Source: Tubulanus polymorphus (taxonomy: Eukaryota > Animalia > Nemertea). From it: a DNA stretch of 64,000 nt. Positions 9,931 through 36,999 of this stretch are shown here, piece after piece (within the stretch, counting starts at the first letter, position 1; every line of letters starts with the position of its first letter). Made by a program: the position numbers and the translations under genes. The notes under the pieces were generated by a model. The model saw nothing but the letters and a program-made list of their open reading frames with translations, had not been told where the DNA came from and did no database searches. The stretch lies in contig NC_134030.1 in the NCBI RefSeq assembly GCF_964204645.1, positions 11,305,947 through 11,369,946 of the forward strand, read 5' to 3'.

Positions 9931-10644
9931 TCAAATGTCTTTCTCATTGACAGATTTCATACACGTTGACGCGAGCTTTGCGAGTACGTCACAATTTGGT
10001 TCACTATCCTGTGGTTTAGGACGCGTTAATTTCAATCCACTGTAGAGCTGTGCTGAACATCTCGAATATAGCACAGCTACTGCTACATCCCATAGGTAGG
10101 CATCGGTCGTAATAGTAGTCTCCATCCCAGGATATTCCCAAAAGGGGTATTGCGATTGGTAGAGAGGGATGATGCGGAAGGCCGACTTGATGTCCGTCTT
10201 AGCTAGGTAGCAGCCCCTACCTAGGCGTTTAATAATCGCGATTGCATCCGATACCCTAGTATATTGGACTGATGCAAATTCGTCAGGAACACCTTCATTC
10301 ACTGATTCACCCTTTGGATAGCTAAGGTGGTGTATTAGGCGGAATTCCCCAGGAGAAATGGCGGATTTGCAAAAGGGCCCGCTATTCGGCCTGCCATAAC
10401 CTCCTTTTGCAGCTTCTGCTGGGTTACGATGTTGTATTTCACCCCTGAATTGAATATGGAAGCCCTGCTGGAACCCTAAGATTAACACTTGCACAATATT
10501 TGGGTCATAACTGGATAAATAGTGGGGGAGTCTACTGACTCTTACTGAAGTTGGCAGCTTGACCTGTTTTAAACCCGGTCCCCTCTCTGGGGCAGGCCGA
10601 CCTGACCCCTGCTGCACTGGAAAGATTGGTGAGCTTGTCCGCAC
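9931..10644 (-). pseudogene. DIRS/Ngaro-type tyrosine-recombinase retrotransposon reverse transcriptase, truncated and frameshifted
   Basis: FRLIHHLSYPKGESVN, SVQY and AKTDIKSAFRIIPL, then a frameshifted LPMGCSSSCAIFE. No RNase H or YR downstream. Confidence 0.85.
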
Positions 10645-10649
10645 CTATA

Positions 10650-11434
10650 ACACGAGTGCTCGAATGTACAGTTAGGTTTGGTGCAGCGTGAAATGATTGA
10701 AATGAGTGAAATGCAAAGCAGTGGCCTGCTGGAGTCTGCTGGGATGGTGGCCGGTGAAAATACTGCTTTGGCCTATTAGATTGAACTGGATTGAAGGCTT
10801 GGTTATAAATTCGGGTATGTATCAGATCCCATTGCAGTTCAATCCTCGACTAATTTAACAGGCGAAATTCCGCATCATATGCCTTCCAGTCACCAGCGCG
10901 TGCTGCAATGTGATGGATGAGGGACGAATAGGCAATTAGTTACCGTGCCTGTGCAGGTTGTGCCTGTACATATACCGCCATAAAGACGTTGAATGCAGTC
11001 GTCCATTGCTCAATGGAGTTGATGTGGACAGATCGGGGTCCCTTTTTAACCTTCCAAACCGGGGTGCCTCTCACCCGATCGAGGCTGTATTCCACGGAGC
11101 CGTTTGAATACACAGAGGTGTGCAGCAAGACCCCCAGCTCTACGTATCTGTTGCCCTGAATCGCCTTCTTTATATCAGGACCGACTGAATCGGCCAGAGA
11201 ATCGGGGATCTCATCTAGTTGACCCTGAACCAAGTTCCCCATCAATTCGTTACCTGCCTGGTCGCGATCCATCGTAATGTCACCGACCACTTGATCAGCA
11301 ATGGAGTGCTGATTAGCCGCAGTTCCGGCTGACGCCTCCACTGATCGCCTGGCAGTCACTTGCCCCAGACTGGATGGAACTGTTGGTGGCACTGCACCAA
11401 GGGGCAGCGCCGGACAGAATGTACCCGTACACAC
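10650..11434 (-). pseudogene. DIRS/Ngaro gag-like ORF, disrupted
   Basis: IKKAIQGNRYVELGVLL and INSIEQWTTAFNVFMAVY, then DWKAYDAEFR and a Cys/His-rich remnant immediately upstream of the RT. Confidence 0.75.
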
Positions 11435-11715
11435 AGTAAGCTGCGAACCAAAAATTGAAACTGTAATATTGGGCGGTGTGACGTGACGCGGCCGGGCAGA
11501 ATGTACCTGTGCGACGAAAATTGAAACTGTAATTGAAATAATTGAAAAATTGATATAAGCCTACTGGATGGACAGTCCATAAGTTGTTACGAGCTCTGAT
11601 CGTACCCTAATAAATGTATGTTAAAGTTTGCCATAATACGCCTATAGGTGTATGTGAATTTATAAGGTAGGCTAATTATCAATGCTATGCGTTGGGTCGC
11701 TCGACTAGGAGCCAG

Positions 11716-12348
11716 TCAGGACTTTCTGGCCATATATGATTGCCCCTCTGACTGCAGCACTTGGTACTTGGTGTTAGCCTGAGTGTTTAGATGGATTCCG
11801 TCCGTTAACTGATCCGTCCAGTTCCCTGCTGCCGGATCCTGGGCCAGACCCTTTGACTTCCAGAATGTGGTATTTGGCTCGGCGGATAGAACAACTTCCA
11901 AGTACTTATCCAAAACCATGACCGTGTTGTTGTAGTCTGGCACCGAATCGGGTACTTTGTACCTCTTCATCGCCCTCAATACTATAACATGGCCCACTCC
12001 CACCCCTAGGAAATGCTCCGCCAATTGGTAAATGTCGTAGCCCAATTTAGCGGGGTGACACCCTGGGATACATAAGTCATTCGATCCGATGTCCAGGATG
12101 AGGACCCTAGGGGTGAAACATATCATATGCGGCAGGAGGCCGTAAAGAGTATCGACTTTCGCGCCACCTAATCCGACCACAGAGGTCAAAGTTGTCTTAG
12201 GGTCTAAGTTGAAATTCCCACCAAAAACAGGGTACTCTGAGCTTTCAATATAATTATGCAGTCTCTTTACAAATGGATGGCCTACCACCATACACTTAAA
12301 AGGCACGAGATTCTGTGCCTGCCTAGAGCCGAAGCGAAAATAAGCCAT
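11716..12348 (-). CDS. SGNH/GDSL hydrolase-like ORF of the DIRS/Ngaro element
   Basis: Blocks VVGHPFVKR (Ser replaced by Pro), GLGGA, ILDIGSNDL and DGIHLN. Intronless and adjacent to gag/RT on the same strand. Confidence 0.75.
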   Translation of the reverse strand: MAYFRFGSRQAQNLVPFKCMVVGHPFVKRLHNYIESSEYPVFGGNFNLDPKTTLTSVVGLGGAKVDTLYGLLPHMICFTPRVLILDIGSNDLCIPGCHPAKLGYDIYQLAEHFLGVGVGHVIVLRAMKRYKVPDSVPDYNNTVMVLDKYLEVVLSAEPNTTFWKSKGLAQDPAAGNWTDQLTDGIHLNTQANTKYQVLQSEGQSYMARKS

Positions 12349-14238
12349 TTGTAATTGATATCAAGATGCACAAAATTACGAATCTGTGCTACTGAGCAGA
12401 GTAGGCCTAGCCGTAAATAACTGGACTAGCGGGTTAAAGAGAAAATAGCCCGAAGAAAGCACTGACGCGGTGCCTGAGCGAAGAAAGGGTTATTGTGTTA
12501 TCGACTAGTTGAGTGCCGAATGGCCTATTATTGTGCGTTCAATAGAACATGGCCCGTTACAAACAGAGTGAGGTAACGGAACAACTTGCAGTAGGGAAGA
12601 TAAAAAGATACAGATAAACAGGTGGATACAGCGGAATTAACGAAATTAAATTTGTTATCGATTGCCCCGATAGTGTCTGTGGATCTACGGCGTGAAACCA
12701 ATTATACTCCCCGATAGGTGCCGCCTGCAGACGGCCGGCACCTATAACCGGGTTCCCGGAATAACACGGCTGTTCGGTGCAGCATAAACATGTTAACAGG
12801 GGAGTAAACTTCCTTTTCGTAGCATGCCGTGGAAAACGACGTTCCGCGAACCACATCTTTTTCTTTGCTGTGCCTTTTATACCCCTTGGCCTTCGCTTCA
12901 AAGCCGCTTGCGCAAAAGCAACACAGTGTCGCCATCGTGGATCAACTGTGGCAAGTGTCGTCGTCTGACTTTGCCTCCACGCGAAACCGCGTGTGGAGGC
13001 AAAAATAGAATGCTCGCGTAACCTCATCGCTAAGCCGCGCCCCCTGTTATGACGTCAAAATGACGCTCTTATGACGCTGACACTGCGCAGCGCGAGGAAT
13101 ATTTGAATTCCGCACTTCTCGTCGTTATTCGATGATTTAACAAGTTTATTTATCCAATCGATCCTCCAAAGAGTAAACAATGAAAAGATATGACGTTCGA
13201 GCGGGGCCATGTTTTAGTGGCTATGATGCAGCCGTGTTTACGACGATACTCAATGTTTGTATAAATGAATTACTCAAACATTGAATACCGGTATTCAAAT
13301 AAGGCGGACTCAGAGTTCAAGCGTGAAATGTTATTTTCACTTTATCCAATTGAACGGATTACCGAATAACACCGGTATCCGTTTAGGCATAGATGTAATG
13401 TAGTTAAGGTAGTCGAGTGATGGTCGAGTGTACCACAGCCATGAAAATAGTTAAATAGAGTGATGATCGAATGGATATCTCGGCATAGGTATATGGAAAT
13501 AGAACCGCAGTCGAATGGACTACCAACCTAAATTGAAATGAAATCGAGTGGATGAGCTGGGGGAGGGGGTTGATCCAATTCATTGACGGCTGCATTAGTA
13601 TACGCAGTATACGGAGCTCCGCGAACCGGCCATTCTCAGGACTGGGTGAATTATGAGTCACCGATTATGTAACTCGCTTGGTTTGGCGCCGGTTGTCGTA
13701 CCCGTTGCCGGGCCGAGTGAAAAACGCCCGATATTGTTGTAGATGTGCTGATCTCAGGAATGCAGACCTTTCACCCAGTCCTGGCAGGTTGGCTTTGCAG
13801 GGGAGCGCCCCCCCCCTAAAATTTCAAGGTGCCCTAAAAAAGATGTGTTTAATTGGGTTTTTCAAAAATATATATAGTTTACTTTTCCCGTGACTTTCAT
13901 GGGGGGCTAGACCACTCTTCCTTTTCGACTCTTATCTTTGGCTATCTAATACATGTCTAGGATATAGGATTCGCAAAGGCTCCCAGGTGCCACCAGAAAA
14001 GCCCAGATAGCTCTAAAATTACATCAAATTTAGGAAATACTTGAACTTACCAGAGCTTTAGGCTGCTGCTATATCAAGCTTCCCCACGTAGATACCTACG
14101 TCACTTTCTCCTATCTTCTAATGTCTTATGTTTGACGTAAGCACGTAGGTTGCTTGTTAACTGCAACCACTTCCTTGAACTCCAGCTTCCTTTCCCGTTA
14201 TCTAAACAACTAATATATCACCGCAATATAACCACCAG

Positions 14239-20199: not shown

Positions 20200-21524
20200 G
20201 AGAACAAGATATTAAGTTAGGCCAAGAAAAAGATGCGTTTATGTTGCTTTTATGGTGCTTGGCCCACACATTTGCGTTGGCTACTAACGATAGCAACGAA
20301 TATGTCCGCTATATCGTTCATTGAGGAGGACCTCAGGACCCTCTGGAAATTCTTTGAGAAAGGCCCAAAACGAGTAGCAATCTATTCTAAAATCAATTTA
20401 GGATACAGGCAGAGAAATTCAGAACCAAATGAGGTGAGACGAAAATCTAAACGAGTTGTTAAAAGCTGCAGGACTAGATGGTTGAGTTTGGGAAAACGCA
20501 TCACGGCTGTAAAAAAAATTCATTCCACTTGACTGTCACTACACTTCTACAATTAAAGGATTCAGATCCACCTAGTGCTGTCAGTTTATTCAAAAAGCTC
20601 AACTGCATTAAATTCATTGGTGCAGTATACATTTTTGAGGCAGTATTGCCTCGTTTGAATGCACTCAGCAGATGTTTTCAGGCGTTTGTCTTGAATTTTC
20701 GCACATAAAGCCATGTATCGAACACTGCAAACCGGAGTTAAATGAGTTAATCGTTGACAAAAAACCAATTGTTACCTTAGAAAAAGATGTAGGTGAAGGT
20801 AGACAATTGACACGGAACGGTCTTGAATTGGATTTAACAGCAGGATCGAAAGTTGTTCTGGAAAGCATGTTAGAAAAGTAGTAAAAATTTCAGCTCTAAA
20901 AACATATCGATGAAAGGTTCGAATCAAGTGCCCCTATACCGAAAACATTCACAATATTTGATCCTACACTTCTGCCAAAGAAAGATGATGTTGCTGTATT
21001 CAGGACTCATGGCAAAGAAGAAATGAGAAAGGCAATTCCTAGCTTTACTGTACTTCAATTTTAATGAAAGCATGTATCTAAATAATCACCGGAATGCTAA
21101 TGAATTATTTTTTAGATAACTAACATGTACTCTTTTGACAGACTGGTAAAAGTTGAACTGTTAGCAGAGTGGAAGCTTTTTAAATTTCATATGGCTGAAT
21201 TTACTTAACCAAGACAGACAGGCAAACTGCTTGAACGTACGTTCGCCTACCACCTACGTGTTGAACAAGTTGTTAGGTATGAAGGAAACCTTTCCAAATC
21301 TGTCCATCTGTCCACTGTGGCCGAGGCAATACTTTCATTGGCATTCAATGCCTGGTCTAACCGTGGAGCAAGCACGTTAAAACGCATAAAGACTAGACTT
21401 AGAAACTCGTAAGTGCCATGAATTCTTTTTCACATTTGCCTAAAATTCATTTGAATTTTGTTTTCAGTTGCATTCAACATTACTACTTACTTGTCGTTTT
21501 TTTCCGAGATTGTCAGACGATATG
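20200..21524 (+). pseudogene. Decayed hAT (ZNF862-like) transposase, 5' part
   Basis: LWKFFEKGPKR, SCRTRWLS, VLPRLNALSRCFQ and KRIKTRLRNS, with stops, frameshifts and introns (e.g. GT 21409 to AG 21508). Confidence 0.8.
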
Positions 21525-21596
21525 AGTAATTGGAAGATGTGGGTTTCAGATCAGAGTACTAGAGTACTAGACACCACTCATCACCACAAGTAATTT
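21525..21596 (+). repeat. Left terminal inverted repeat
   Basis: Exact reverse complement of 36688-36759. Imperfect similarity continues to the ATAAATGGG start of the first gene at each end. Confidence 0.97.
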
Positions 21597-22938
21597 TTTT
21601 TCCTAATAAATGGGGGAGAATGAACACCAGACAGAAAACAATAATGTTAATAAAAATCAATATTATTGCCCGTATTGTAAAAAATACATCGATAAATCTA
21701 ATAAATCTAAACATGAAAAATCTTCAAATCATATAAAAAATGTTATAGATTTTGAAACTTCAGAAAATTCCAATGAAAGAAAAGAACGATTAGAAAATAT
21801 GAATGTGGATGAAATAAAATGTGAAGTTTGTAATGAATTTATAGTAAAAAGGAATTATAATAGACATCTCGAATCACAAAAACACCATCAAAATTTGAGT
21901 AATAATGTTTTAGGAAAAGATTATTTTGACGATAAACCTCAAAAAGTAAAAAAACCAACTTCAAAAACTAAATCCATTTCAAATAAACCTTACATGGAAA
22001 ATGTTAGAAATTATATTGATTCACTAGAAATAAAAGATACAATTGAAATTTTAGAAACATTACATAGTTAAATTGGCCCTGCAGCTATTATATTTAGATT
22101 TTTTAAAGGTACAACAATAGAATATTACAGTACATTTAATGAAATAATAGAAAAAATACTAGATTTGATAACAGATGTTGAATATCCGAAAATTAGTATC
22201 TCAGGGAAAGTAAGTTTTATAAAGTCAGAAGAAAAAATGAATTATAATATTCAAACACACTCTGAAGAAATAATTTCAAAAACACAAATAAAAGAGAAGT
22301 TAGAAAAAATATTTAATGAACTTAAACGTCATATTGAAGAAAGATATTTTGAGGGTTCTGGCTTAACATTGAACGAAATTATATATTTAGATTTAAATGT
22401 TTATAATACAAAAAGGAATAAAACATCAAAAAGTAATAAAATGTTTAAAAATGATTCAAACTTTACAACAGAAAAGGATATTAAAGCATCATCTTATATT
22501 AAATTACCATTTACAACAAAAGCAGTAATAAATGTTCAAAATGAAGATAATAAATGTTTACTATGGTCAATTATTAGTTGCTTACATCCAACACAGGGAA
22601 ATGTTTGTAGAATAACAGATTATCGGAAATATGAAACATTATATAGAATTGATCAATATCCAGTAACTATAAAAATGATTCCTAAAATAGAAAAAGTTAA
22701 TAATTTAAAAATAAATGTATTCGAATTAATGCAATTACCAAAGACAAAAGGTGAAAATATTAAAGATTATACATTGGAAGCTTTATATTTAACAGAATAT
22801 TATGATGATGAAAATGCTATAGATTTGTTATATTATAAAAAAGATGAAAATGAACATTATATATGGTTAAAACAAATTGATTTATTCTTTAGAACAGAAA
22901 GTGATCATCATCATCGTAAAATTCATCTATGTAGAAAT

Positions 22939-23018
22939 CGACTTATTATGTCGAAATTCGACTTAATAAGTCGAAATTGTGAAAAAACTTTCTCGTATGT
23001 CACCTAGGGGCTTCCGTA
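22939..23018. mobile_element. ~80-bp foreign fragment (end of a non-autonomous DNA transposon) at an internal polB deletion
   Basis: CGACTTATTATGTCGAAATTCGACTTAATAAGTCGAAA...TATGTCACCTAGGGGCTTCCGTA has short internal palindromes and a composition unlike the viral DNA. It joins ..HLCRN directly to ..RFLDSY. Confidence 0.55.
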
Positions 23019-24401
23019 GGTTGCATTAGATTTTTAGATTCTTATAGATTTCTAGCAAGTTCATTAGATAATTTATCAAAAAGTTTAGTTGATAATGATT
23101 TTATAATAACTCGATATTATTATTCAAATGAACAAGATTTTAAATTATTGAGATATAAAGGTGCAATTCCTTATTCATTTTATAAAACACACAATGATTT
23201 TAATGTAACAGAATTATTAAAAGATCAATTTTATGATCAATTAAAAGAGGAGTACGTGAAAGACGAAGTGTTTAATAGAACATTAAATATTTGGAATCAT
23301 TTTAAGATGAAAAATCATGGTGAATTAGTTGATTTATATTTAAAATCAGATGTTATGATATTGGCTGACATATTTGAAAAATTTAGAGAAGTTAATTTGA
23401 ATCATTTTAATGTTGATCCTTGTTATTGCTACTCTAGTCCTGGTTTAACCTGGCAATGTGGTTTAAAATATACAAATGTAGAATTAGATTTATTAAAAGA
23501 ACCAGATATGGTTTTATTATTTGAAAAATCAATTAGAGGTGGAATTAGTGGTGTTATGGGAGATAGATATTTTAAAGCAAATGGTGAATATAAATTATTA
23601 TATATTGACGCCAATAATTTATATGGTTGGGCAATGATGCAACCTCAACCATATAAAAATTTTATATTAACAGAAGTTGAAAATTATGACAAAACTAGTT
23701 GGGAAAGCGCAATTATGAGTTTAGAAGATGAAGCACCAATTGGTTATTTCTTTGTAGTTGATTTAGAATATCCTGAAAATATAAAGTTTAAAACAAGAAA
23801 CTTACCTTATTGCCCAGAACATTTAACTGTAGATGATAGTTATTTAAGTGAATACCAGAAGAAAATAAAACCGAAAGATCATGTTTTTACAGAAAAATTA
23901 ATACTTACTCAAAATAATAAATACAATTATATTGTTCATTATAGAATGTTAAAATTTTATCTAAAACAAGGAATGAAATTAAAGAAAGTACATAGATATA
24001 TTGAATTTAATCAATCGAAGTGGTTAGAAAAATATATAGATTTCAATACTCAACAGAGAACCATATCAAAAACAGATTTTGAAAAAGATTTCTTCAAATT
24101 AATGAATAATAGTTTTTATGGTAAAACATGTGAAAATATTAGAAATAGAAATGATATTGAATTAGTAAATAATTCTGAACGATTAAGACATTTACAATCG
24201 AGTCCTAGACATTTAGGAAATAAAAGATTTGAAGATTATTTAACAGCAGTTAAATTAAAAAGAACGTCAATGAAATTTAATAAACCTATATTCATTGGTT
24301 CAACTGTTTTAGGAGTATCAAAATTATTAATGTATGATTTTTATTATAATGTTTTACAACCACTTTTTGGGGAAAAGCATATTGAAATATTATATTTTGA
24401 T

Positions 24402-25465
24402 TCTGTAACAGCTGACACCCCAATATTATTAAAATGTAATGATAAAATATTAATAAGAAGAATTTCAGAAATAATTCCAAAACAAAATGAATGTTATATT
24501 TCATATGGTGAAAAAGAATTAATACAAATAAATGGTTTAATGGATGTTTGGACAAGAAATGGATGGAAAAAATTAAAGAATATTATTAGGCATAAAACAA
24601 ATAAGAAAATCTATAGAGTTAGAACTAAATTAGGATTTGTAGATGTTACAGAAGATCATAGTTTAATTAAACGAAATGGCGATGAAATAAAACCAACTGA
24701 TATAAAAATTGGAGATGAATTATTACATAAAAGATTTTTCCAAAGAATGAATCATATGTCATTTGATGAAATAATTGATAATATTTATAATATAGAACCC
24801 GAAACATTAGAAGAAAATGAATATTTTATCAAAGGATTTTTCATGGGTGATGGTTCAGCAGGTGTGTATAATTATGTTAATCGCACTCAATATTGCTGGT
24901 ATTTATGCAATCAAGACTTAAAATTATTAGAAAGAATAAAGAAATTCTGTGAAGAAGTTTATCCAAATAAAACATTTAAAATCATGGATGTTATGAAATC
25001 AACAGCAGTTTATAGAATACTTGTAAATAATCCTAAAGATTTTGCTATAAAATATAATGATGAATTCTATATTCATGCAATAGTTAAAAGTAATACTTCA
25101 ACAAAAGAAAAGATAGTTCCAGATTATGTATTAAATGCAAAAAATAATTTAAGAAAATGGTTCTTCATTGGATTCAATGCTGCAGATGGTTCAAAAAGTT
25201 TCAAAAACCGCAAAACAATATCTTTAGCTCAAAAAGGAAAAGTTGCTATATCAGGATTGAATATATTATGCAGTTCATTAGGATTTAATATGAATATTGG
25301 ATTGATTAAATCTAAACCAAATTGCTTTAATTTAAGACATGTAGAAAATGAGTTAACAGAAGAAGTTGAAGATTTATTTGAAATATATAACCCAACTGAC
25401 TATGTTTATGATTTATCAACAGATGATGGAACATTCAATTCTGGGTTCCCATTAATCCAAAAAAT
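24402..25465 (+). mobile_element. Intein with LAGLIDADG homing endonuclease inserted in polB motif C (~355 aa)
   Basis: Block A SVTADTPILL right after YFD; block B GFVDVTEDHSLI (TxxH); LAGLIDADG motifs FIKGFFMGDGS and FFIGFNAADGS; block F YVYDLSTDDGTF. Adding one A to the A6 run at 25459-25464 gives block G LIQKN|TDAY in frame with the polymerase C-terminus. Confidence 0.93.
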
Positions 25466-25894
25466 ACCGACGCCTACATACTAAAAATCAAGACAAATGA
25501 CATAACAAAAGACTTAAAAACATTAAATCATCATTTTGATTTTAGCAATTATCCCAAAGATCATGAACTATTTAGCAATGATAATAAAAAGATTCCTGGT
25601 AAGTTTAAAGATGAATTAGGGGGTGATGAAATGATTGAATTTGTTGGGATAAGAAGTAAAATGTATAGTTATAGAACAAAAGATCATGAAGCTAAAAAGT
25701 TAAAAGGAATAACAAAACATGTGGTTGATAAACATATAGAATTTCAAGATTATATAAAGTGTTTATATAACTCAATTGTAATGAAACATAAAATGAATTG
25801 TTTAAGATCAGAAGATCACGAGATGTACAATCATGAAGTTGAAGAAACTAGTTTGAATCCATTTTTTTATATTTTCCATATCTTCTTCTGTTAA

Positions 25895-26887
25895 TTAAGG
25901 TTTTTCATAATAATCGTTAAATAATAAATATAAATACATTTTCTTTTGTTTTGTGTTAAATGTTGACGGAATAATTGTTTTTATAATATCTTTTTTAGTT
26001 ATTTCACCATTTTTATTTTCTATTATTTTCATTTTTTCAAGCCATTGCATATATTCTGGTGTATGATCTTCTATAGAAAATATTTTAAAAATTTCATCTA
26101 GATAATTTAATTTTGGATCTATGAGAAAATTTCTAGTTTTTTCTTCACCCCATAAATTCTTTTGCCATCCACATTCATTACAAAATAACACAGTACCTTC
26201 TTGTCTTAAGGTCGCATAACTACATTGTGGACATTTTCGTTTATAATTTATTGGTAATAGATCTTCATTAAGCTCTTGGTATTTTCTTACGTTTTCTTTA
26301 TGTTTTATTGTTCTATTATGTAGATTTGAATTACTTGTTGTAATAATCAATTTACAATATTTACAATAATATGTTTTTCTTGTTAATTCATTATATTGTT
26401 TTTCTAACTTTTCAACTGTTTCTTTATTATCTGGTAACGTTTTCTCATATTTTATTTTTTCTAATAAATTATTTTTTCTTTCGTTGAATTCAGTTTCAAA
26501 TTTATTAGAAATTTTATCTATATGTGCTTTACGAAATTGATGATTCTCCCTATCTTCTATATTTTCAGGTCTATATTTTATTCGACAAGGCTCACAGAAA
26601 TGATCTTTTATATTATCCTTATCATAGAATAAGAAAGGTCTTTTCCAAATACCTTCAGGTTCAACTTCAACAGAATTACTTTCATTACTATCAACATTAG
26701 CCGTTGCGCCATTAATTCTACACTTCTCTGAATGTTTTTTAACATAATTTCTTGAGAATAATTTATTACATTTTGGACAGTTTAGTTTAGGGGGTTTATA
26801 ATTTTCATCATGTTTTTTCATATGTCGAGCCATATTACTTTTTCTTAGAAATTCACCACAAATTTCGCATGCTATCTTCTCATCCAT
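25895..26887 (-). CDS. Multi zinc-finger protein of the Polinton
   Basis: CEICG..RHMKKH, CPKC..KHSEKC, CEPC..HQFRKAH, CKYC..HNRTIKH and CPQC..CNEC. Starts with ATAAATG. Confidence 0.8.
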   Translation of the reverse strand: MDEKIACEICGEFLRKSNMARHMKKHDENYKPPKLNCPKCNKLFSRNYVKKHSEKCRINGATANVDSNESNSVEVEPEGIWKRPFLFYDKDNIKDHFCEPCRIKYRPENIEDRENHQFRKAHIDKISNKFETEFNERKNNLLEKIKYEKTLPDNKETVEKLEKQYNELTRKTYYCKYCKLIITTSNSNLHNRTIKHKENVRKYQELNEDLLPINYKRKCPQCSYATLRQEGTVLFCNECGWQKNLWGEEKTRNFLIDPKLNYLDEIFKIFSIEDHTPEYMQWLEKMKIIENKNGEITKKDIIKTIIPSTFNTKQKKMYLYLLFNDYYEKP

Positions 26888-26955
26888 TTATTTAGGAACA
26901 ATTTTATTAAAATTAATTTTTAGTGATGAGCGGTAATTTTTTTATGTTATAAATA

Positions 26956-27744
26956 ATGGTAGAATTAAAAGAATACAGAATATTTGTTGATTCTAGAAAA
27001 CTTACAAATTATAAATCACATAATTTACTAGTTCAATTAGATAGAGAATTTAAGAATTGTGTTGATTTAAAACTAGTAAATATAAGTTTATGTAACTCAT
27101 TTTACAATATATCGGATAAAACTGATGAACATAGAATCCTTTTTATTTTTGATAAAATTAGAAATAAACGGTTTCAACTTTATCTAACACCAGGATTATA
27201 TAATTTAGAAACATTAGCGCAAGAAATTAATCGGAAAGCTCGGATTGTGTTAGGTAGTGATTCTAAATTTTCAATTAGATTTATAAAAAGTGATAGTTCT
27301 GATAAAATTAAAGTAAAGTTTGATGATGAAAATATTAGTCCTGATTCATTGATGTTAAGAAGACATGCTTACGCGGTAAAAAAACCTTTTGCTAAACTGT
27401 TAGGAATTCCTCCAGATAAACTTATTGTTGGAAACATATACGGTATATCAAATTTAATACCTTTTACACATTTTTATATTTATTGTAATTTAATTGATCC
27501 TACAAAAACATTCGAAGCAACTAAAGATATAACTTGTAATTCTAGTATACTAAATATTTTACCATTGAAGAATGTTAAACAATTTGGAACGCAAATAAAT
27601 TATAATTTAGCTGAATGTGATTTTAAACCTTGTATTCCTCAATTTAACAATTTTAAATTAGAAATAAGAAATCATAATGGTTATTTAATTGATTTGAATA
27701 ATTTTCCTGTGATATATGAATTAGTTTTAAGATGTAGAGAGTAA
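26956..27744 (+). CDS. Minor capsid protein (penton, single jelly roll)
   Basis: Typical Polinton pattern: NSFYNIS, PGLYNL, KLLG, FYIYCNLI, and C-terminal LEIRNHNGYLIDLNNFPVIYELVL. Confidence 0.8.
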   Translation: MVELKEYRIFVDSRKLTNYKSHNLLVQLDREFKNCVDLKLVNISLCNSFYNISDKTDEHRILFIFDKIRNKRFQLYLTPGLYNLETLAQEINRKARIVLGSDSKFSIRFIKSDSSDKIKVKFDDENISPDSLMLRRHAYAVKKPFAKLLGIPPDKLIVGNIYGISNLIPFTHFYIYCNLIDPTKTFEATKDITCNSSILNILPLKNVKQFGTQINYNLAECDFKPCIPQFNNFKLEIRNHNGYLIDLNNFPVIYELVLRCRE

Positions 27745-27760
27745 TTTTTTCATTATATAA

Positions 27761-28111
27761 ATGAATATAACTGTTGGACCGAGTATATGTTTTGGGTTTG
27801 ATTTTAAACGTGTGAAAGAAATGAAATTTCACATTAATGATGTAATTACACAAATCAAAAATATTGCATTTTCTAATGAAACAACATTTAAGTATGAAAA
27901 AACAATAGATAAAGAAACTTTAAATGTAGAAAAGATTACTAATTTAATTAGAGAATCTTTAAGATTTTATGAATTAGATGAAGATTTTATCATCGATGAT
28001 ATTAAAAAAATAATAATTGAAATATATACAAATGAAACTAGTAATGAAATAAATGTTGAATTAATCATAAATAAGTTAACTAAATATTTTGAAGATAGTA
28101 ATTTTTTTTGA
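27761..28111 (+). CDS. Hypothetical Polinton protein
   Basis: 116-aa ORF with ATAAATG start in a tightly packed array. Confidence 0.6.
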   Translation: MNITVGPSICFGFDFKRVKEMKFHINDVITQIKNIAFSNETTFKYEKTIDKETLNVEKITNLIRESLRFYELDEDFIIDDIKKIIIEIYTNETSNEINVELIINKLTKYFEDSNFF

Positions 28112-28118
28112 TTAATAA

Positions 28119-28340
28119 ATGAGTGATAATAAGTGGATAATAACTGGATTATATAATGGCGCCTTACTATCAGTTGGAACTGTTGGTTATTCAATGGTAT
28201 TAAAAAAAGTATTTAAAATAGGAAGTGTTAATGTTGATAGATTTGATATAAATGATATCTTAAAATTAACATTAGCAGTTACTTTATCCAATTTAACTAT
28301 TGATTATTTGGAAAAACAAAAATATATTCCTCCCATATAA
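28119..28340 (+). CDS. Small hydrophobic Polinton protein
   Basis: 73 aa, two hydrophobic segments, ATAAATG start. Confidence 0.7.
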   Translation: MSDNKWIITGLYNGALLSVGTVGYSMVLKKVFKIGSVNVDRFDINDILKLTLAVTLSNLTIDYLEKQKYIPPI

Positions 28341-28364
28341 ATGCATAATTTTTTTGTTAAATAA

Positions 28365-28787
28365 ATGGCTTCTGCAATTATAACTATTATAGGATCAGCA
28401 ATTGTTAACGCTTTAGCATTTACTGGTGGTGGATATTTATTTAAACATATTGATAAAAATAGTTCATCAGGAGAACAAAGAAGACATAACTTAGCATTAG
28501 AGAAATACAATAAAGCAGCAGAAGAATATAGAGAAAAGAGGCAAAACTATATGGATTATATTAACAAAGAATTATATGATCAGAAGATTTCACATAGAGA
28601 TTTTCAATCAGTCGATGATGCAATGAGTTTATATAACGCGGTAACCAATAAAGAAAAATTACATCTATACAAACCTAAATTATCAGATTATTATACCCCA
28701 AGTAAAGAACAACAGAAATATGAAATAATTTGGATTTTAGGTGGAACAGTTATTGTTATATTTGTGGCGTATAAGTTTACTAATTAG
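28365..28787 (+). CDS. Polinton membrane protein (hydrophobic N-terminus, helical middle, C-terminal TM)
   Basis: MASAIITIIGSAIVNALAFTGGGYLF...IIWILGGTVIVIFVAY; ATAAATG start. Confidence 0.75.
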   Translation: MASAIITIIGSAIVNALAFTGGGYLFKHIDKNSSSGEQRRHNLALEKYNKAAEEYREKRQNYMDYINKELYDQKISHRDFQSVDDAMSLYNAVTNKEKLHLYKPKLSDYYTPSKEQQKYEIIWILGGTVIVIFVAYKFTN

Positions 28788-28807
28788 TATTTTTTTTTGC
28801 TAAATAA

Positions 28808-29238
28808 ATGGAAGATAAACTTGATAGTATTGATATTATTCCTCATGATATAAATAAAACTAAATTAAAAATATATTTAGAAAAACAAATATTAGAATTT
28901 GAAAGTGACTTAAAGATAAAAAAGAAAAAATATTTAAAAAGTAAAATTATATATTATTTGATTATAAGTGGTTCGGTTACAATTAGTTCTGTAATAACAT
29001 TTCTAGCAATATTCAGTCCATTAACACCTTTAGCTATATCAATTGGTGTGTTAGGATTAAGTTCAAGTGTTTTAACCGGTATAAGTAAATTAAATATAAA
29101 AAGTAATAAAGAAAAAATAAAACTAATATAAAAGAAATTAATAAATTATAGAATACACTAGATTATATAATAAGTTTAAATGGCCATATAAAAGTTGAAG
29201 AACAAGATACATTATTAAAAGAATTAATAAATTATTAA
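28808..29238 (+). pseudogene. Two-TM Polinton protein, 3' end disrupted
   Basis: Two adjacent hydrophobic helices. Coding-like sequence continues past the stop at 29131 in a shifted frame. Confidence 0.6.
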
Positions 29239-29254
29239 TTTTTTAATTAAATAA

Positions 29255-30633
29255 ATGGTAGATAGTTTTCCAAAAGCTTTCCAATATAATAAATCAATTA
29301 AATATAATATTCCAGCAATAGATTTTAATAAAGATATTACATATAGAAATGAAGTTTTAGATTCATTAACTAATTTAGAAATTTATGTTACTGAAACTAA
29401 TAATTTTAATGCAAAGATGGAAAATATATTCCATGTATATTTAATTAATTTTAAAAAATTGAAAGATGAAAAACAATGGTTATTAAAATCTAATATGAAG
29501 TATTGGCAGAACCAATTAAATTTTGCTGTTTATTGTGCAACAACAGGATGTGGAATGATCGTTTGAATAATTCTAGATATAAATTAATTCAAAGTTTATT
29601 TAGATTTCATACATACTTTCAAATCAGAATAATATTAAATGAATTAGAGTGCGCTTTACCAGGATCTAGATATTTTAAGGAATTAGATAATAATATTAAT
29701 TTATCAAAGTTTTATAAAATTTGCAATGAATTTAATATAGATATAAATAATTCTGATTTTAGAACAAAAATTGGAACAATAAGATCACTTCCTTGCCCTA
29801 AAAAGATTGCAGAATATTGTGCACTTCCCATACCATCTAATAGTTTTTATAATATCTATAGTAATAAATTAGGTTATGGTAAAATAGAAACTAAGGATTT
29901 AGAAACATTAAATTTCAATAAATTACCGACATTTTATGATAATTTAAAACAAGAAAACAATAATGGTTGGGTTTATTTCATTTTAGAAAATAATGAAGGT
30001 TTTACAAAATCAGGTATACAAAGAATAAATCAATCTATTAGAACTTATTTGATATGTATTTTAGGTGCGCAAGTTGAAACCAGATCCCCGATAATTGGAA
30101 ATTTGAATACATCATTCGATACACAAAAACAATTTAAAGTTTTATTTGAAGATTCCATACATAATGATAAAAATAGATCGATTCCAGAAAACATTGTAAG
30201 ATATCAAAATTATCTAGATAAATCACATATTAGATTAAATTATTGTATAGGTCCTAATCTATTAATTATTTCTAATGATTTAGTATTAAAGATGGGAAAT
30301 ATAATTGGTTATAATAATCTAATTAAAACTGCAACAATAAATAATTCATTTGGATTGAATGATATAAATAAAAAGATAATTACTGCTCCAAAATTAATGG
30401 AAGGTGAAAAAAATAAAAAACATATTCAATCAACAGAAACTAAAACTAAGAACATTAAATTGGATAATGACTCCAAAATAAAAGAATACAATACATCAGA
30501 AGATATAAAAACTGGTAAGATTCAACATGAAATAATTAAACTAAATGATGATAATAAATCCCATGAAAATACTAAATTAGCTTTAACTTGTATAGGAATT
30601 GTAATCGGAGGAATATTATATTTTAAATTTTAA
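29255..30633 (+). pseudogene. Conserved Polinton protein with C-terminal TM, frameshifted
   Basis: ORF 29255-29566 (WQNQLNFAVYCATTGCG) overlaps 29503-30633 (FRFHTYFQIR..GFTKSGIQRINQSIRTYLICILGAQ), with a shift near 29550. Only one ATAAATG start. Confidence 0.75.
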
Positions 30634-30649
30634 TTTTTTTATTATATAA

Positions 30650-31961
30650 ATGGATGTAGAAGGTGGAGAAGATATTGGAATGGATCCTTTTGATGAACCT
30701 GGTATAAGTGATGAACAACCACCTGATTTTGATGAAACAAGTTTTAATGACGGTAATGAGCCAGAATATAATAATAATTTAAATATGCCTGATTATATTA
30801 AAAATGCAAAATCACAATTAAATCCTGAAAATTTAGACCCAGATTTAGTAAAACAAGATTTAGATAATTTAAACAAAATACCTAAATTAGAAGATTTAAT
30901 TGAAAAATCTAAACTTAACATAAATGATGAAGACGTTGGACTTTTAGCAGATCAATTAAAATTTTTAGATAATGGTAAATGTTATTATCGTTTGAAAGGT
31001 GATTATTATATTGATATCACTTCTAAAAATAATAAAAAGAATATTAGCGGAATCAACTTTGAAAAGTTTAAAACCAGATAAAATTAAAATAATAAGTAAT
31101 AGTAATGAAATAACTGATGTTACACAAAAAGAAATAGATGATAATATAGACGTATTTAAACAAAGAATTAATGAATTATTTGAAATAATCAAAAAGAAAT
31201 CAGAAACAGAAACAACTTCTAAACAGAATATAACTTCCAAAAATAGTAAACTTAAATCAAATAAAGTTCCAATTGAAAAACTTTTACCGAATGGATTACT
31301 TGATGCAACAGATCAAGAATTAGAAGATTTAGATATATTTTCTGATAAATCAATTAGAGAAATTATTAGTATAAGACTTGCATCTGATAAAATTGCGCAT
31401 GATAAAAGTATAAGAGATTTTAAAATTAGAACTTTAGAAAAAGAATTAACTGATAAAAATAAAGAAATAGAACAATTAAAGTCTGATTTAGATCATCAAG
31501 TAATTGATGAAATGGAATATAGGCAAAAAGAATTACGTTTAGAAAAAGAAAAAGATGATTTAGAATATAACATAGAATTACAAAAAGAAGAAATTAAATT
31601 ATTGTTAAAATCATATGATTATAATATTAATAGATTAAAAGTTATTTTTAAAGATTTATTGATAAAACCAAATTCTGAAATATCATTGAAAGATAGAATA
31701 AAATTATTATTTAAGTTTGAAGGAATAACAATTCTTTCAATTCTAACAGCTGTAACTATGTTATTTACAACAATTGGTTTAGCAATATCAAATGCTTTAA
31801 AATCTACTCCTACTCCCAATAAACCAGATAAACCCCCAGATAATAATTCTATACAAGATAAAGTTAAAGATGGTATAAAGAAATTAGCAAAATATTTATG
31901 GGAACTATCTAAAAAATCTGCTGCATCTTTACTATTTTTTTGGGCTAGTGAATATGATTAA
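30650..31961 (+). pseudogene. Acidic N-terminus / coiled-coil / TM Polinton protein, frameshifted
   Basis: Overlapping ORFs 30650-31081 and 30999-31961 with a shift near the A-run at ~31035. Long charged coiled coil followed by GITILSILTAVTMLFTTIGLAI. Confidence 0.7.
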
Positions 31962-31991
31962 AAATAAATGATTAATTTTTCTGTTAAATAA

Positions 31992-33232
31992 ATGAGTGGG
32001 AGTTATATAAGTCCTTCTAAGATTTCTAGAATATCTAATGCTATTAAAGCAGAAAGATCACATCATATAATTACTCATAATCCTTCTAATATTAATCCTG
32101 ATGAAACTTTATATGTTAGAATTCCGAGATTAACACAAAATACTTTTTATGTTCCAAATAGTATTTATTTATCAGCTGATTTAAAAGTAACTGGTCATGA
32201 TAATAATTATGTTGTCGATAATGTTGGAAGATATTTGATTAAAAAATTAACTATAAAGATTGGTCCAGAAACAGTTTTCTCATTAGATGATTATAATCTA
32301 TTTATGCATTATAAAGATTTATGGTTAACTAAAGAAAATAGAAATAATATGATATTTCAGGGTATTCAATCGGAAAACCATAATAAATTAAGATCAGGAG
32401 CTAATGACGCAATAGTAACTCGTGCCACAGATAATTTGATTAAAAAGATTTATGGAAGCAATATAAAATTCCATTAGACTTTGAATTGATAAATAATAAT
32501 GCACCTTTATATAAATATGCAATTCAAGAAGATATTATATTTGAGATAACATTTGCTCCTGTAAATGAAATTGTATTATCTAGCGTTGTTAAAGATATGG
32601 GTTATAAATTATCGAATATATGTTTAGAATATAACACAGTAACTAATGAAAATATTGTTAGCACAATTCAAACTCAATACAATCAAGGATTTTCATTATT
32701 ATATGATTATATTGATAAATTTAAAACTGTAACTATTAATGCAAATGATGAAATAATTAATGAGAATATTAACTTCCCAAGAAGATCTATTAAAGGTATA
32801 TTAATATTTTTTACCATTGCAACATATTCTAATGGCGCAATAAAGGTTGATAATTATTATAATCCTGAAATAACAAAAGTAGAAATAACTATTGAAGGAA
32901 TAGCAAATAAAATATTTTGTCAAGGAATGAGAATGATAGATCAGTGGCCAGAAATTAGAAAACATTTTATGAATGAAAAAGTAAAATCATTTGAAAATTG
33001 TAATATTAATCAAATTGATTATTATACCGGCAATAAATACGCATTATGGTTAGATTTTAGAACAACAGAGGATAATTCATTACATGGTTCTGGAAAAAAA
33101 CTACAGAACACTAAAGATGGAATACAATTATTCATGAAAAAGAAAAGAGGAGACATTAAAATGCACATTTATATTATATCTGATGCACAATTAAATATTG
33201 TAAATTCACAATTAGATAGTATTCAATATTAG
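31992..33232 (+). pseudogene. Major capsid protein (double jelly roll), split by a 1-nt frameshift
   Basis: ITHNPSNI..LYVRIPRL; one added A at ~32460 restores KYKIPLDFEL; then LSNICLEY, FPRRSIKGIL, YALWLDFRT..LHGSG and YIISDAQLNI. About 413 aa in total, beta-rich. Confidence 0.8.
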
Positions 33233-33262
33233 AAATATAAAGTTAAAATTAACGATATATAA

Positions 33263-34390
33263 ATGGGAGGTAAAAAAAACTCCTAATACTAAAGAACAAT
33301 ATTTAAGAAATTTATATTACAACCCTGAGAGTTCGGTTGCTTATTCTTCTACCAAAAATATATGGCGTCAAGTAAAACAAGATAAATTAGATAAGATAAT
33401 CCCACAAAATTTAGTTAAATATAAAGATATAAATGAATTTATGTTAGAACAACCAACATACACAACACATAAAAAAATTGTTAAAAAATATAAAACTCGT
33501 AAAACTATGGTAAGTTATGTAGATCAACAGTGGCAAGGAGATTTAGTTGATATAAAAAATGTTAAGAAAGATAATGATGATTATTGGTGGTTATTGAATA
33601 TAATTGATATTTTTAGTCGTTATGTATGGAGTTTCCCACTTTATAGAAAAGATGCTGTACAAACATCAAATGTTTTAAGAAAATTTCTTTCGGATGATAA
33701 ACTAAAACCAGAAAAATTACAATTTGATGATGGAAAAGAGTTTGATAATTCACTTGTTCATGAACTCTTAGATAATCATAATATTAATTATTTTTCAACA
33801 AAATCGGATAAAAAAGCAGCAGTTGTTGAACGATTTAATAGAACATTGAGAACAAGAATGTGGAAATATTTTACAGCAAATAATACTTTTAAATGGATTG
33901 ATGTTTTACCAAAATTGATAGAAGGATATAATAATTCTTATCATTCTTCTATTGGAATGAAACCTATTGATGCTAGAAAACCTGAAAATGCTGAAATTGT
34001 TTGGAATAATTTATATGGAGCATTTCTTGTAGATGATTTTGGTGAACCTAAATTTAAAGTTGGTCAAAATGTTAGAATTTCTAAGTATAAAAAGATATTT
34101 GATAAAGGATACGATCGAAATTTTACTAGAGAAATATATAAAATAAAAAAGGTAATAACAACAAAACCATATGTCTATAAAATAGAAGATTTAGATAGTG
34201 AAGAAGTTGATGGCTACTTTTACGAAGAAGAATTAAGTTAAACTCCTGAAAATCTAGAACAAGAATATAAAATTGAAAAAGTATTAAAAACAAAAACTAT
34301 TAAAAGAAAAAATATTCTTTAGTAAAATGGGTTGGATGGCCAGATAAATTCAATGAATGGATATTATCAAGTAAAATTAAAAATATATAA
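33263..34390 (+). pseudogene. int: Retroviral-like (rve, DDE) integrase with C-terminal chromodomain, disrupted
   Basis: WQGDLVD, IDIFSRY, QFDDGKEF and KAAVVERFNRTL. N-terminal YYNP is reached via a frameshift in A8 at ~33273. After the TAA at 34239 comes YKIEKVLK..LVKWVGWPDKFNEW (chromodomain). Confidence 0.95.
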
Positions 34391-34999
34391 ATGAATAAAG
34401 AATTATTTATATTTGAGCCTCATAATATGTTAATATCTGGCGTAACAAATTGTGGAAAAACTTATTTTATATTAAATTTATTAGAAACTGTTTATGAAAA
34501 CTATTTTGATAATATAGTATTATTTTGCCCAACATATGAATTTAATCAAACTTATGATAGAAATATTACTAGAAATAATAAATTTATTATATTAGATCCT
34601 AAAACAGTAAAAGAAAATTTAGATAATTGTATTAAAATAGCAATTGATATTTATAAAGGATCAAATACATTATTCATTATAGATGATTGTGCTAATCTAC
34701 ATGATTCAAAAGTTAGAGAAAGTGAGTTATGTTATTTAGCTTTCTCTGGGAGACATTTCGGGATAACAACATGGGTTTTAAATCAAAAATATAATTCAAT
34801 TGTTAAAGACTTTAGGGAGAATATAAGATTTCTAGTTTTATTCTACAATAAAGATAGAAAATCAATGAAAAATGCACTTGAGGAAAATGATATTATTCCA
34901 CATGATTTACATAATGAATATATGGATAAGTTGAAAAATATTAAAAGATCAAAATTACTATTTAGATTACAACACCCATTTAAATATGAATTTATTTAA
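34391..34999 (+). CDS. A32/FtsK-like DNA packaging ATPase
   Basis: Walker A GVTNCGKT, Walker B LFIIDD, SGRHFG, LNQKY and REN motifs. Confidence 0.93.
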   Translation: MNKELFIFEPHNMLISGVTNCGKTYFILNLLETVYENYFDNIVLFCPTYEFNQTYDRNITRNNKFIILDPKTVKENLDNCIKIAIDIYKGSNTLFIIDDCANLHDSKVRESELCYLAFSGRHFGITTWVLNQKYNSIVKDFRENIRFLVLFYNKDRKSMKNALEENDIIPHDLHNEYMDKLKNIKRSKLLFRLQHPFKYEFI

Positions 35000-35000
35000 A

Positions 35001-35274
35001 TTCAACTAGCTTGTTAATCTAGTTGAATTCTAGTTACATTCTAGTTGAATTCTAGTTATTGGTAGTTGTAACAAAAATCAACTAGATTTAACAATATTTT
35101 AACTAGCTTGTTAATCTAGTCTAATTCTAGTTACATTCTAGTTGAATTTTAGTTGTTAGTAGTTGAAACAAAAATCAACTAGATTTAACTAGAAATAAAC
35201 AGAAACAACAATATTTCAACTAGCTTGTTAATCTAGTTGAATTCTAGTTGAATTCTAGTTGCAACATCACAACT
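35001..35274. repeat. Internal higher-order repeat of CTAG-centred units
   Basis: Three ~100-bp units beginning (C)AACTAGCTTGTTAATCTAGT, built from 11-bp TTCTAGTTGAA-like subunits. Confidence 0.9.
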
Positions 35275-35292
35275 AATTTTTTTGTTATATAA

Positions 35293-35898
35293 ATGGTAGG
35301 TGAAAAGAAAAGAAAATCTGAAAATGGTGATGTTCCAATTGAAAAAACTTTAGATGATTTAGGAATAACAGAAACAAAATTAACTCCAGATGATGGTGCT
35401 TTAAATAATGTTACAACAAATAATAATCATGAATATTATCTTTATTGTAAACATCAATTAGAAATATTAATAGCATCTGGAAAATGTAAAAATTTTGTCG
35501 GTAAAAATTTAACTTATAATGAATTAGATACAATGAAATCAGATGAAATTATTAGATTATTTAAGATTTATGAAGCCGCGAGAACAGCTAGAATTAATGA
35601 CGCGATATCAGAAAATGTAGTAAAAGGTTATAGTAAATTATGTAATTATATACTACCAATTGAAGATGAAAATAGATTATATTCCGATTTAAAAAATGAT
35701 TATTTAGTTATGACTGAATTAAATAAATGGATTGGATATTTATCATTTCAATTAGGTGGATTTATGACATTATTATCAACTGGGGTTATAACATTTTCAA
35801 ATATTGAAAGTAAAAATATTTCTATAATAAATGAGCGAGGTGGAAGAAGTGAAGGAATTAACTGTGAAGAAAAAACCGAGATCACAGAAACAAATTGA
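35293..35898 (+). CDS. Hypothetical Polinton protein with a hydrophobic segment near the C-terminus
   Basis: 201-aa ORF with ATAAATG start. Confidence 0.7.
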   Translation: MVGEKKRKSENGDVPIEKTLDDLGITETKLTPDDGALNNVTTNNNHEYYLYCKHQLEILIASGKCKNFVGKNLTYNELDTMKSDEIIRLFKIYEAARTARINDAISENVVKGYSKLCNYILPIEDENRLYSDLKNDYLVMTELNKWIGYLSFQLGGFMTLLSTGVITFSNIESKNISIINERGGRSEGINCEEKTEITETN

Positions 35899-36188
35899 AT
35901 GGTCTCGGCAATTAGGAATTAAATCACAAGAATATAAAAAAAGCTGTGAAAGAAAACATAAGTAATAAAAATGGTGAAAATATTGTTATTTCTACTCCTT
36001 CTGATAATAGAATATTTGATAAATATCTATATTTTACGGTTGGATTTGTAATTGTATTCATTTTGATTGGGCGTAATTGGTATAAGAAATCAAATAAAAT
36101 TCATGATATTAATAATTCTGAAACAACTGCTATCAAAAATGAAAATACTTCTGAAATTCCAAAATTGATAATTAAAAAAATGGATTAA
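35831..36188 (+). pseudogene. Small TM protein, probably frameshifted
   Basis: An ATAAATG start at 35831 (MSEVEEV..RSQKQIEWSRQLG) joins ORF 35946-36188 (YLYFTVGFVIVFILIG) through the A-run at ~35940. Confidence 0.55.
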
Positions 36189-36348
36189 TATTTTAGAAAA
36201 AAAGCAAAAAAATAATTTTTTTTAATCAATTGAATATTAATTGAATATCTCACTACTTTTGTCTATCTATGAGGAGCAATTAAATTGTCCAGATAAGTCA
36301 TTTCGGATTCTAGATATTCATTATTTTTATTAATTTATTTTTTTAAAT

Positions 36349-36674
36349 TTAATCAACAATTTCTAAATCATGATGGCCATCTTCATTTTTCCCATGATAG
36401 ATTATTTTAAATCCTTCTAAATCTTTTAATTCCTCTGTACTCAATGAAACCCATTTATCAGGTAAAAACACTTTAAATTCTCGCGATGTGCTAACATTAC
36501 AGTAGCTTAAATTCGCTGATACTTTTCTCCATATTTAGTTTTTATCTTTTCTAATTTCAATATTTTATGTTCAATTTCTTTTGTAACATCAACTAACTTT
36601 TTTATTTCAAATTGTTTTTTTGCTGGTTTTATTCTGTTATTTATTGTTGCTAAGAATGCTTTTCTATCTCCCAT
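36349..36674 (-). pseudogene. Small inward-facing Polinton gene next to the right TIR, disrupted
   Basis: TTATAAATG start, MGDRKAFL..KIKTKYGEKY, then a stop and shift near 36481-36520, then EFKVFLPDKW..IIYHGK..LEIVD-stop. Confidence 0.6.
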
Positions 36675-36687
36675 TTATAAGGAAAAC

Positions 36688-36759
36688 AAATTACTTGTGG
36701 TGATGAGTGGTGTCTAGTACTCTAGTACTCTGATCTGAAACCCACATCTTCCAATTACT
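36688..36759 (-). repeat. Right terminal inverted repeat
   Basis: 72/72 match to the left TIR. Confidence 0.97.
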
Positions 36760-36999
36760 GATATGCTGGAGTCACTATTGCAAAGTTCAATCAATGGTCC
36801 TGATACTGCTAATGGTAATGAGGTGGATGAATTGATTCAGGAAGTATTGAGAATCTGGCATGAAAAGAAACACCGCAAAAAAATGAAGTCGAATTCGGTT
36901 GGTGTAGACCAACACAAGAACTTTTCTGATGATGATGAACTCTCAAATACTTCTTCAGATACTTCCATGGATTCTTGTTTGTCCGATTTTGATAAATAA
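36760..36999 (+). pseudogene. hAT transposase C-terminus (remainder of the dimerisation domain)
   Basis: Removing the Polinton and one TSD copy restores KRIKTRLRNS-LSDDMLESLLQSSINGP, followed by W..KKHR and an acidic tail. Confidence 0.85.

Follow-up and report, generated by a model that had tools for sequence, protein, structure and literature searches.

Late promoters of vaccinia virus consist of a T-containing core, 5-7 bp and a TAAAT(G/A) initiator over the start site (PMC5294985), and slippage at this initiator gives rise to 5′ poly(A) leaders (PMC6211774). Virophages share late promoters with their helpers (PMC6428243), mavirus and the EMALEs with CroV and Sputnik with mimivirus (PMC6428243, 10.1101/2025.10.09.676808), and the Polinton-like viruses (PLVs) Gezel-14T and PgVV have helper promoter motifs and monocistronic RNAs (10.1101/2022.07.28.501842). 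PLVs are also known to co-package with entomopoxviruses and have been found in occlusion bodies (PMC11296320), and a homologue of an entomopoxvirus gene is present in polintoviruses of corals (PMC11131425). The locus described here is a Polinton-like provirus at positions 21525-36759 of a 64,000-nucleotide stretch of the nemertean Tubulanus polymorphus genome (GCF_964204645.1, NC_134030.1, positions 11,305,947 to 11,369,946 of the forward strand), which as a whole is referred to as the window. The provirus is a 15.2-kb island with a G+C content (GC) of 24%, complete but decayed, and nearly all of its genes begin at a two-part start signal which, with a probability of about 0.6, we read as a poxvirus-type post-replicative promoter for which a large, pox-like DNA virus infecting the same cell would supply the RNA polymerase.

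A first-pass annotation of the window had placed ATAAATG over 14 start codons, and the motif is present at all of them with the ATG exactly at the position given; the start at 26956 reads TATAAATAATG, as had also been noted. The starts at 21610 and 36674 (−), however, lie in the two copies of the terminal inverted repeat (TIR) and amount to a single observation. At all 15 starts the encoded protein begins where its orthologues from related loci begin, which identifies them as real gene starts, and TAA stands immediately before the ATG at 14 of them, compared with 32 of 577 other ATGs. Since the annotated starts might have been picked by the motif, the count was repeated mechanically on open reading frames (ORFs) of at least 70 codons, where TAA precedes 11 of 19 starts and 35 of 571 other ATGs; seven of the eight misses are internal ATGs of broken genes and the eighth is 26956. 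The motif also stands out from an AT-matched background, as ATAAATG occurs 27 times in the whole element compared with 12.9 ± 3.5 (maximum 25) in 300 dinucleotide shuffles. The composite TTTT-N4-14-ATAAATG is found 11 times versus 2.1 (maximum 7), whereas the excess of bare TAAATG is mild (46 versus 32.1, maximum 46), and because the latter is barely above the shuffles and the composite strongly so, the signal is positional and not a bulk excess.

The T-run previously described ahead of most starts is borne out. At least four T are present between −22 and −7 at 10 of the 14 TAAATG starts, as opposed to 7 of 32 non-start TAAATG, but the run is missing at 26887, 33263, 34391 and 35831. Over all 15 starts, such a run ends at −9 to −13 in 11 cases and TTTTTNT is found ahead of eight; A occupies −18 in 13, −17 in 12 and −4 in all 15, T occupies −14 in all 15, and the spacer from −10 to −7 is of mixed bases. 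A role of the T-run as a TTTTTNT early terminator, suggested at first, does not fit its position. The run also precedes 21610 and 26956, at which no gene of the same strand terminates, and keeps a constant spacing to the ATG; it therefore belongs to the start signal. In outline, the signal consists of a T-rich core some 11-16 bases upstream, a short spacer and a TAAATG that takes in the start codon, and it marks almost all gene starts.

The same signal recurs in related elements. An ATPase alignment search retrieved at least 38 metagenome loci with 42-82% identity, and in the 38 listed loci TAAATG stands at 129 of 180 ORF starts and at 161 of 4693 other ATGs. When the near-duplicates L031 and L034-L036 and the other-motif loci L014-L016 are removed, the 31 remaining non-redundant loci have TAA before the ATG at 119 of 135 starts versus 140 of 3604 other ATGs; in this set, the triplet TAG is found ahead of the ATG once and TGA never, whereas the ORFs themselves end in TAA (74), TGA (27) and TAG (21). 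Likewise, T at −14 is present in 99 of the 119 start motifs; 77 of the 119 have T at −12 as well, whereas 26 of 140 non-start TAAATG combine the two. The motif persists throughout the lineage, in members with as little as about 45% identity in the ATPase, and in listed loci with a GC of at least 0.35 (up to 0.45) it stands at 59 of 72 ORF starts, the long T-run being kept in just 24 of these 59 and T at −14 in 95%. It is found at 37 of 42 divergent and 49 of 52 tandem starts. In three cases (L009:1585-1597, L011:1427-1437 and L012:1017-1027) opposed genes share a single palindromic start signal with 4-6 bases between the ATGs, and there is an overlap of 13-22 bases between opposed ATGs in L017, L019-L024, L028 and L037; a minimal initiator suits divergent starts of both kinds. 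Four giant-virus loci with a GC of 0.24-0.26, of which L040 and L041 are close relatives, served as a control and under identical ORF calling carry the motif at 4 of 34 starts; L039 was dropped as a control, its remaining ORFs being bacterial genes. Composition and ORF calling thus fail to explain the motif, because it holds at GC 0.35-0.45 and is scarce in the AT-matched giant-virus loci. Two clusters, P0055 and P0073, contain ATPases of the lineage (57-59% identity) labelled Bartonella on very short contigs, probably eukaryotic contamination.

The fixed geometry of core, spacer and initiator, the conservation through the lineage and up to a GC of 0.45, the occurrence at divergent and TIR starts and the scarcity in AT-matched giant-virus genes all strengthen the promoter-like reading already put forward in the first-pass annotation. 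As in the vaccinia late promoter, a TAAAT(G/A) initiator lies over the start codon with a T-rich core about 5-7 bp upstream; in the form found here the initiator is TAAATG, the core ends 5-9 bases before it and the spacer tolerates G and C. In contrast to vaccinia virus, the signal, known here from sequence alone, resides in a 15-kb integrated element without a found RNA polymerase and precedes all gene classes, the DNA polymerase and other replication genes included. Neither is there an early-type promoter ahead of any start, as the early-type motif AAAATTGA occurs five times in the element, each time within a gene. No RNA polymerase subunit was found in the element with Pfam/NCBIfam, the sole RNA-polymerase model match falling inside the intein of the DNA polymerase; the largest unassigned proteins are of about 440 and 490 aa. 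Each gene would then be a single unit transcribed by the post-replicative machinery of a helper, in a manner comparable to Sputnik, mavirus and Gezel-14T. The early machinery of poxviruses is enclosed in the core, and post-replicative promoters alone would suit incoming naked DNA. The helper would most simply be a pox-like virus, as a candidate only; the lack of introns, earlier taken as consistent with a virophage-like lifestyle, is not diagnostic.

Several observations weigh against a pox-like helper. The element yielded no gene specific to poxviruses, and the many chromosomal copies of the family are equally expected from a purely nuclear cycle. The motif could also occur outside this lineage, the comparisons covering its relatives and giant viruses; scans of viral contigs with the ATPase, two ATPase alignments and the protein-primed B-type DNA polymerase (pPolB) P0215 found no Polinton. 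Coding strands avoid T-runs with a z of −5 to −7, but the giant-virus control shows avoidance too (z −3.4), for which reason this was rejected as specific evidence. Of the 119 motifs in the relatives, 57 also read AATAAA or ATTAAA, and the TATA-type relatives described below represent essentially one element (L015 and L016 are near-identical) and two starts in L014, with their nesting unsecured. The intein, which had been brought forward as giant-virus-like and in keeping with the proposed helper, is indeed of that kind but does not point to a poxvirus. It interrupts the YxD-TDS polymerase motif behind the Asp, at a site that is identical in relatives, and in a comparison among proteins of 1270-3625 aa its best matches are other pPolBs (62, 46, 40 and 39%), followed by RNA-primed polymerases with up to 41%; at least four other pPolBs carry an intein allelic with those of giant-virus PolB. 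Outside the Polintons, the most similar inteins (36-41%) reside in delta-like giant-virus polymerases and not in those of poxviruses, the two RNA-primed carriers examined both being delta-like and one of them encoded on a giant-virus genome bin, and the genes of the intein-sharing giant viruses lack TAAATG, as the low count in the control loci illustrates. Judged by these comparisons, the intein shows contact with giant viruses, not with poxviruses.

We know of no described late promoters for most giant-virus lineages, and the signal could belong to another viral polymerase, that of an undescribed non-pox large DNA virus or a capsid-borne enzyme acting in trans, with TAAAT converged or inherited. 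The origin of the intein in non-pox giant viruses speaks for this possibility, as do the yeast linear plasmids, which have a TAAAN slippage initiator together with their own polymerase, so that TAAA initiators are not confined to poxviruses (PMC6211774). We nevertheless consider it unlikely, since the signal agrees with the vaccinia description in all its parts, down to the invariant G and the T core, the intein-sharing giant viruses lack the motif, and the search of the element yielded no polymerase gene; unlike the yeast virus-like elements, with their own RNA polymerase and capping enzyme, the element has neither enzyme among its recognised genes. To a similar degree we doubt that host RNA polymerase II transcribes the genes without any helper, the motif being a compact lineage-specific core promoter or an A-rich Kozak-like start context. 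Adintovirus transcripts have been reported from fish tissue (PMC8502044), the element is integrated in the nucleus in multiple copies and TATAAA is spelled in 6 of the 14 window motifs, but a T at −3 does not favour translation, opposed starts are as close as 4-6 bases, and AATAAA is not depleted in the coding strands (201 versus 191 expected, without a comparison to host genes). Were a TATA box to overlap the ATG, transcription would, moreover, begin some 25-30 bases past that codon (PMC5294985).

With gaps of only 0-30 bp between the window genes, TAAATG might instead be a processing signal on polycistronic or tandem transcripts, either for stop-start reinitiation, as an upstream poly(A) signal, or as a trans-splice acceptor with the T-run as the pyrimidine tract. 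The AATAAA or ATTAAA hexamers in nearly half of the motifs would fit such a role, but they are equally common at divergent (18/37) and tandem (24/49) starts, as is the motif itself. The TAA serves as the stop of the upstream gene in just 7 of 49 tandem cases and is used before the ATG to the near exclusion of the other two stops, in which ORFs also end, and the last 12 bases contain no AG in 86 of the 119 motifs of the relatives and, by eye, in all 15 window starts; a processing signal is therefore improbable. Least credible of all is a compositional artefact of an element with 24% GC and of ORF calling from the first ATG after a stop. The modest bulk excess of TAAATG over the shuffles is in line with it, but the motif holds at GC 0.35-0.45, is rare at the starts of equally AT-rich giant-virus loci under identical calling, and favours TAA exclusively over TAG and TGA.

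The relatives L014-L016 provide a lead to a possible change in promoter type. In L016, TAAATG is present at 0 of 16 starts, whereas TATA is found within 14 nt at 8 of 16 starts and 15 of 385 other ATGs, and most of these TATA starts are preceded at about 10 bases by a T-rich tract, ATT(T)T or TTTT. L015 and L016 have a GC of 0.49 and a TATA(G)A initiator with an upstream T tract, and two such starts are found in L014 (532 and 1125). The layout in L016 is similar to the asfarvirus late promoters, which combine TATTT at −15 to −11 with TATATA (PMC5294985). L016 and the window element have nine orthologous genes in common. The ATPase tree places L016 together with the TAAATG elements, and a quickly built capsid tree puts it inside their group with a Shimodaira-Hasegawa-like approximate likelihood ratio (SH-aLRT) support of 97, but a tree with L016 outside is not rejected by the approximately unbiased (AU) test (p 0.067). 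These observations hint that the promoter type was switched along with a change of helper. L015 also contains a weak match to Pox_VLTF3 at 4427-4933 (E 6e-4), which is below the cut-off.

The features of the window element are as follows.
21519..21524 (+): left target-site duplication GATATG, 6 bp; the right copy is at 36760-36765
21525..21614 (+): left TIR of about 90 bp; begins with AGT, holds a T-run and ends in the ATAAATGG start signal
21610..25894 (+): pPolB gene with N-terminal zinc fingers; polymerase motifs read directly in the translation
24402..25460 (+): intein with a LAGLIDADG endonuclease; broken, end approximate
25895..26887 (−): zinc-finger protein gene; ATAAATG start
26956..27744 (+): conserved gene with the variant start TATAAATAATG and a T-run
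27761..29240 (+): four small genes with starts at 27761, 28119, 28365 and 28808, each with a T-run and ATAAATG in gaps of 7-24 bp
29255..30633 (+): lineage-conserved gene with a C-terminal membrane anchor; broken near 29557; T-run and ATAAATG
30650..31961 (+): conserved coiled-coil/membrane gene; broken near 31050; T-run and ATAAATG
31992..33232 (+): major capsid gene of the double jelly-roll type; broken near 32460; ATAAATG with a T-run
33263..34390 (+): rve integrase gene (PF00665, E 2e-10); broken near the start and near 34240-34310; ATAAATG without a T-run
34391..34999 (+): A32-type packaging ATPase (PF04665, E 3e-13); intact; ATAAATG
35004..35261 (no strand): non-coding repeat block between the ATPase and the next gene; 97-bp unit x1.9 with 11-bp subunits
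35293..36188 (+): two lineage-conserved genes, an intact one from 35293 and a broken one from 35831
36507..36674 (−): initial fragment of a small broken gene; its ATAAATG start lies within the right TIR
36670..36759 (−): right TIR; carries a start signal identical to that of the left TIR

The element ends in AGT...ACT, and the two TIR arms agree up to the start codon except at two positions. Both TIRs (21525-21614 and 36670-36759) stop exactly at the start signal, placing a promoter-like motif that faces inward at each end; 21610 is the first ATG within the left TIR. In this copy 8 of about 15 genes are broken. The pPolB gene has a stop near 22070 and frame breaks near 23000 and 25460, and its 3′ end is probably cut short; the polymerase piece in the window has no PF03175 match, which is present in the closest long relative, P0215. 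The product of 26956..27744 is likely a minor capsid (penton) protein, judging from its size and position. The small gene at 28808 is broken and its counterpart in L001 is SLATT-like. The orthologues of 29255-30633 (alignment A3) are strongly conserved proteins of 400-440 aa with an invariant cysteine motif and a C-terminal membrane anchor, and for this protein and its orthologues neither a family nor a fold was matched; the predicted fold of the 442-aa conserved protein, with a predicted local distance difference test score (pLDDT) of 39, is too poor for a structure search. Profiles of three families gave no match to solved structures, and an Atlas search with the 35293 protein no usable one. 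The capsid gene has an intact orthologue in L001 that is 73-75% identical to the window copy, and the model of the L001 protein (pLDDT 66) matches the capsids of iridovirus, PBCV-1 and virophages with E ~1e-13, which identifies the major capsid protein as a double jelly roll. L001 also has a deoxynucleoside kinase gene at 10340-10981 (−) (PF01712, E 2e-31), likewise with a T-run and TAAATG. The TAA of the ATPase start signal doubles as the stop codon of the integrase, and the repeat block at 35004-35261 is a possible origin or packaging signal. Depth in one DNA run is 116-1096 over the element and about 11 in the flank, a rough value from a single bin, and because the former is so far above the latter the family appears to comprise tens of diverged copies; runs X7 and X8 gave only 21-base chance matches. 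Elsewhere in the window, a GC-rich decayed element at ~9300-13100 (−) contains a GDSL/SGNH-like ORF (weak Pfam match) and a fragment that by eye resembles a DIRS-type reverse transcriptase, without a Pfam match. The sequence adjoining the element at ~20200-21420, which has no Pfam match, we presume by eye to be a decayed hAT-type transposase.

The element has the TIRs with AG...CT ends, 6-bp target-site duplication, pPolB, rve integrase, A32 ATPase and double jelly-roll capsid of Polintons/Mavericks (Polintoviricetes), and like canonical Mavericks and adintoviruses it has the AGT terminus (PMC8097293, PMC8502044). It differs from these in that no adenain-type cysteine protease was matched among its ORFs or their orthologues in related loci, although a very divergent one could escape, and in its capsid family, where 0 of 67 members match PF21738 and six match Capsid_N, though the family might still be of the Mavpol type. 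For these two reasons the element is filed as a Polinton-like provirus and not as a canonical Maverick. In common with mavirus, the EMALEs and Sputnik, it is an integrating virus with pPolB and rve integrase and has one conserved motif at nearly all starts, with clades that differ in the motif (PMC6428243, 10.1101/2025.10.09.676808), but the motif itself and the capsid type are different, as probably is the host group. Given that the 415-aa capsid protein has its best fold matches among those of the nucleocytoplasmic large DNA virus type and that the maturation protease was not found, the element at most functions like a virophage (Virophaviricetes) and is not a member. The PLVs of entomopoxviruses, AHEV_PLV1/2 and CBEV_PLV1, are likewise tied to poxviruses, a tie that in our case is inferred, but, compared by description only, they carry an adenain protease and lack the rve integrase (PMC11296320), the reverse of what is found here. 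Gezel-14T and PgVV are similar in being PLVs and not lavidaviruses with helper-type promoter motifs, but theirs is the mimivirus-type early motif AAAATTGA at five starts, and the host is an alga (10.1101/2022.07.28.501842).

No report of pox-type promoters in Polintons was found in the literature searched, which did not extend to subscription journals and most supplements. By term search, the word promoter is absent from the accessible text of PMC11296320, PMC8502044, PMC11131425, 10.64898/2026.10.13.758929 and 10.1101/2024.03.23.586382, as are motif and transcription from that of PMC11296320, and the accessible part of PMC8097293 contains nothing relevant on promoters. The start signal is a real feature and would represent a variant of virophage-style promoter sharing. 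Tentatively, and at somewhat less than even odds, it may mark a broad undescribed lineage of protease-less PLVs, residing in probably animal genomes, as satellites of Pokkesviricetes, most of them with pox-type late promoters and a sub-branch switched to the asfarvirus type. The signal bears on the way integrated animal Polintons achieve transcription and on their possible dependence on large DNA viruses, and from promoters of the helper type at each gene one would expect pox-like viruses in hosts not known to have any. If this is true, the virophage lifestyle, known from protists and mimiviruses, would also include a widespread lineage of Polintons and machinery of the poxvirus type, a Polinton clade could swap its promoter type along with its helper, and the promoters would serve as fossil traces of pox-like invertebrate viruses that have yet to be seen, from which helpers could be predicted.

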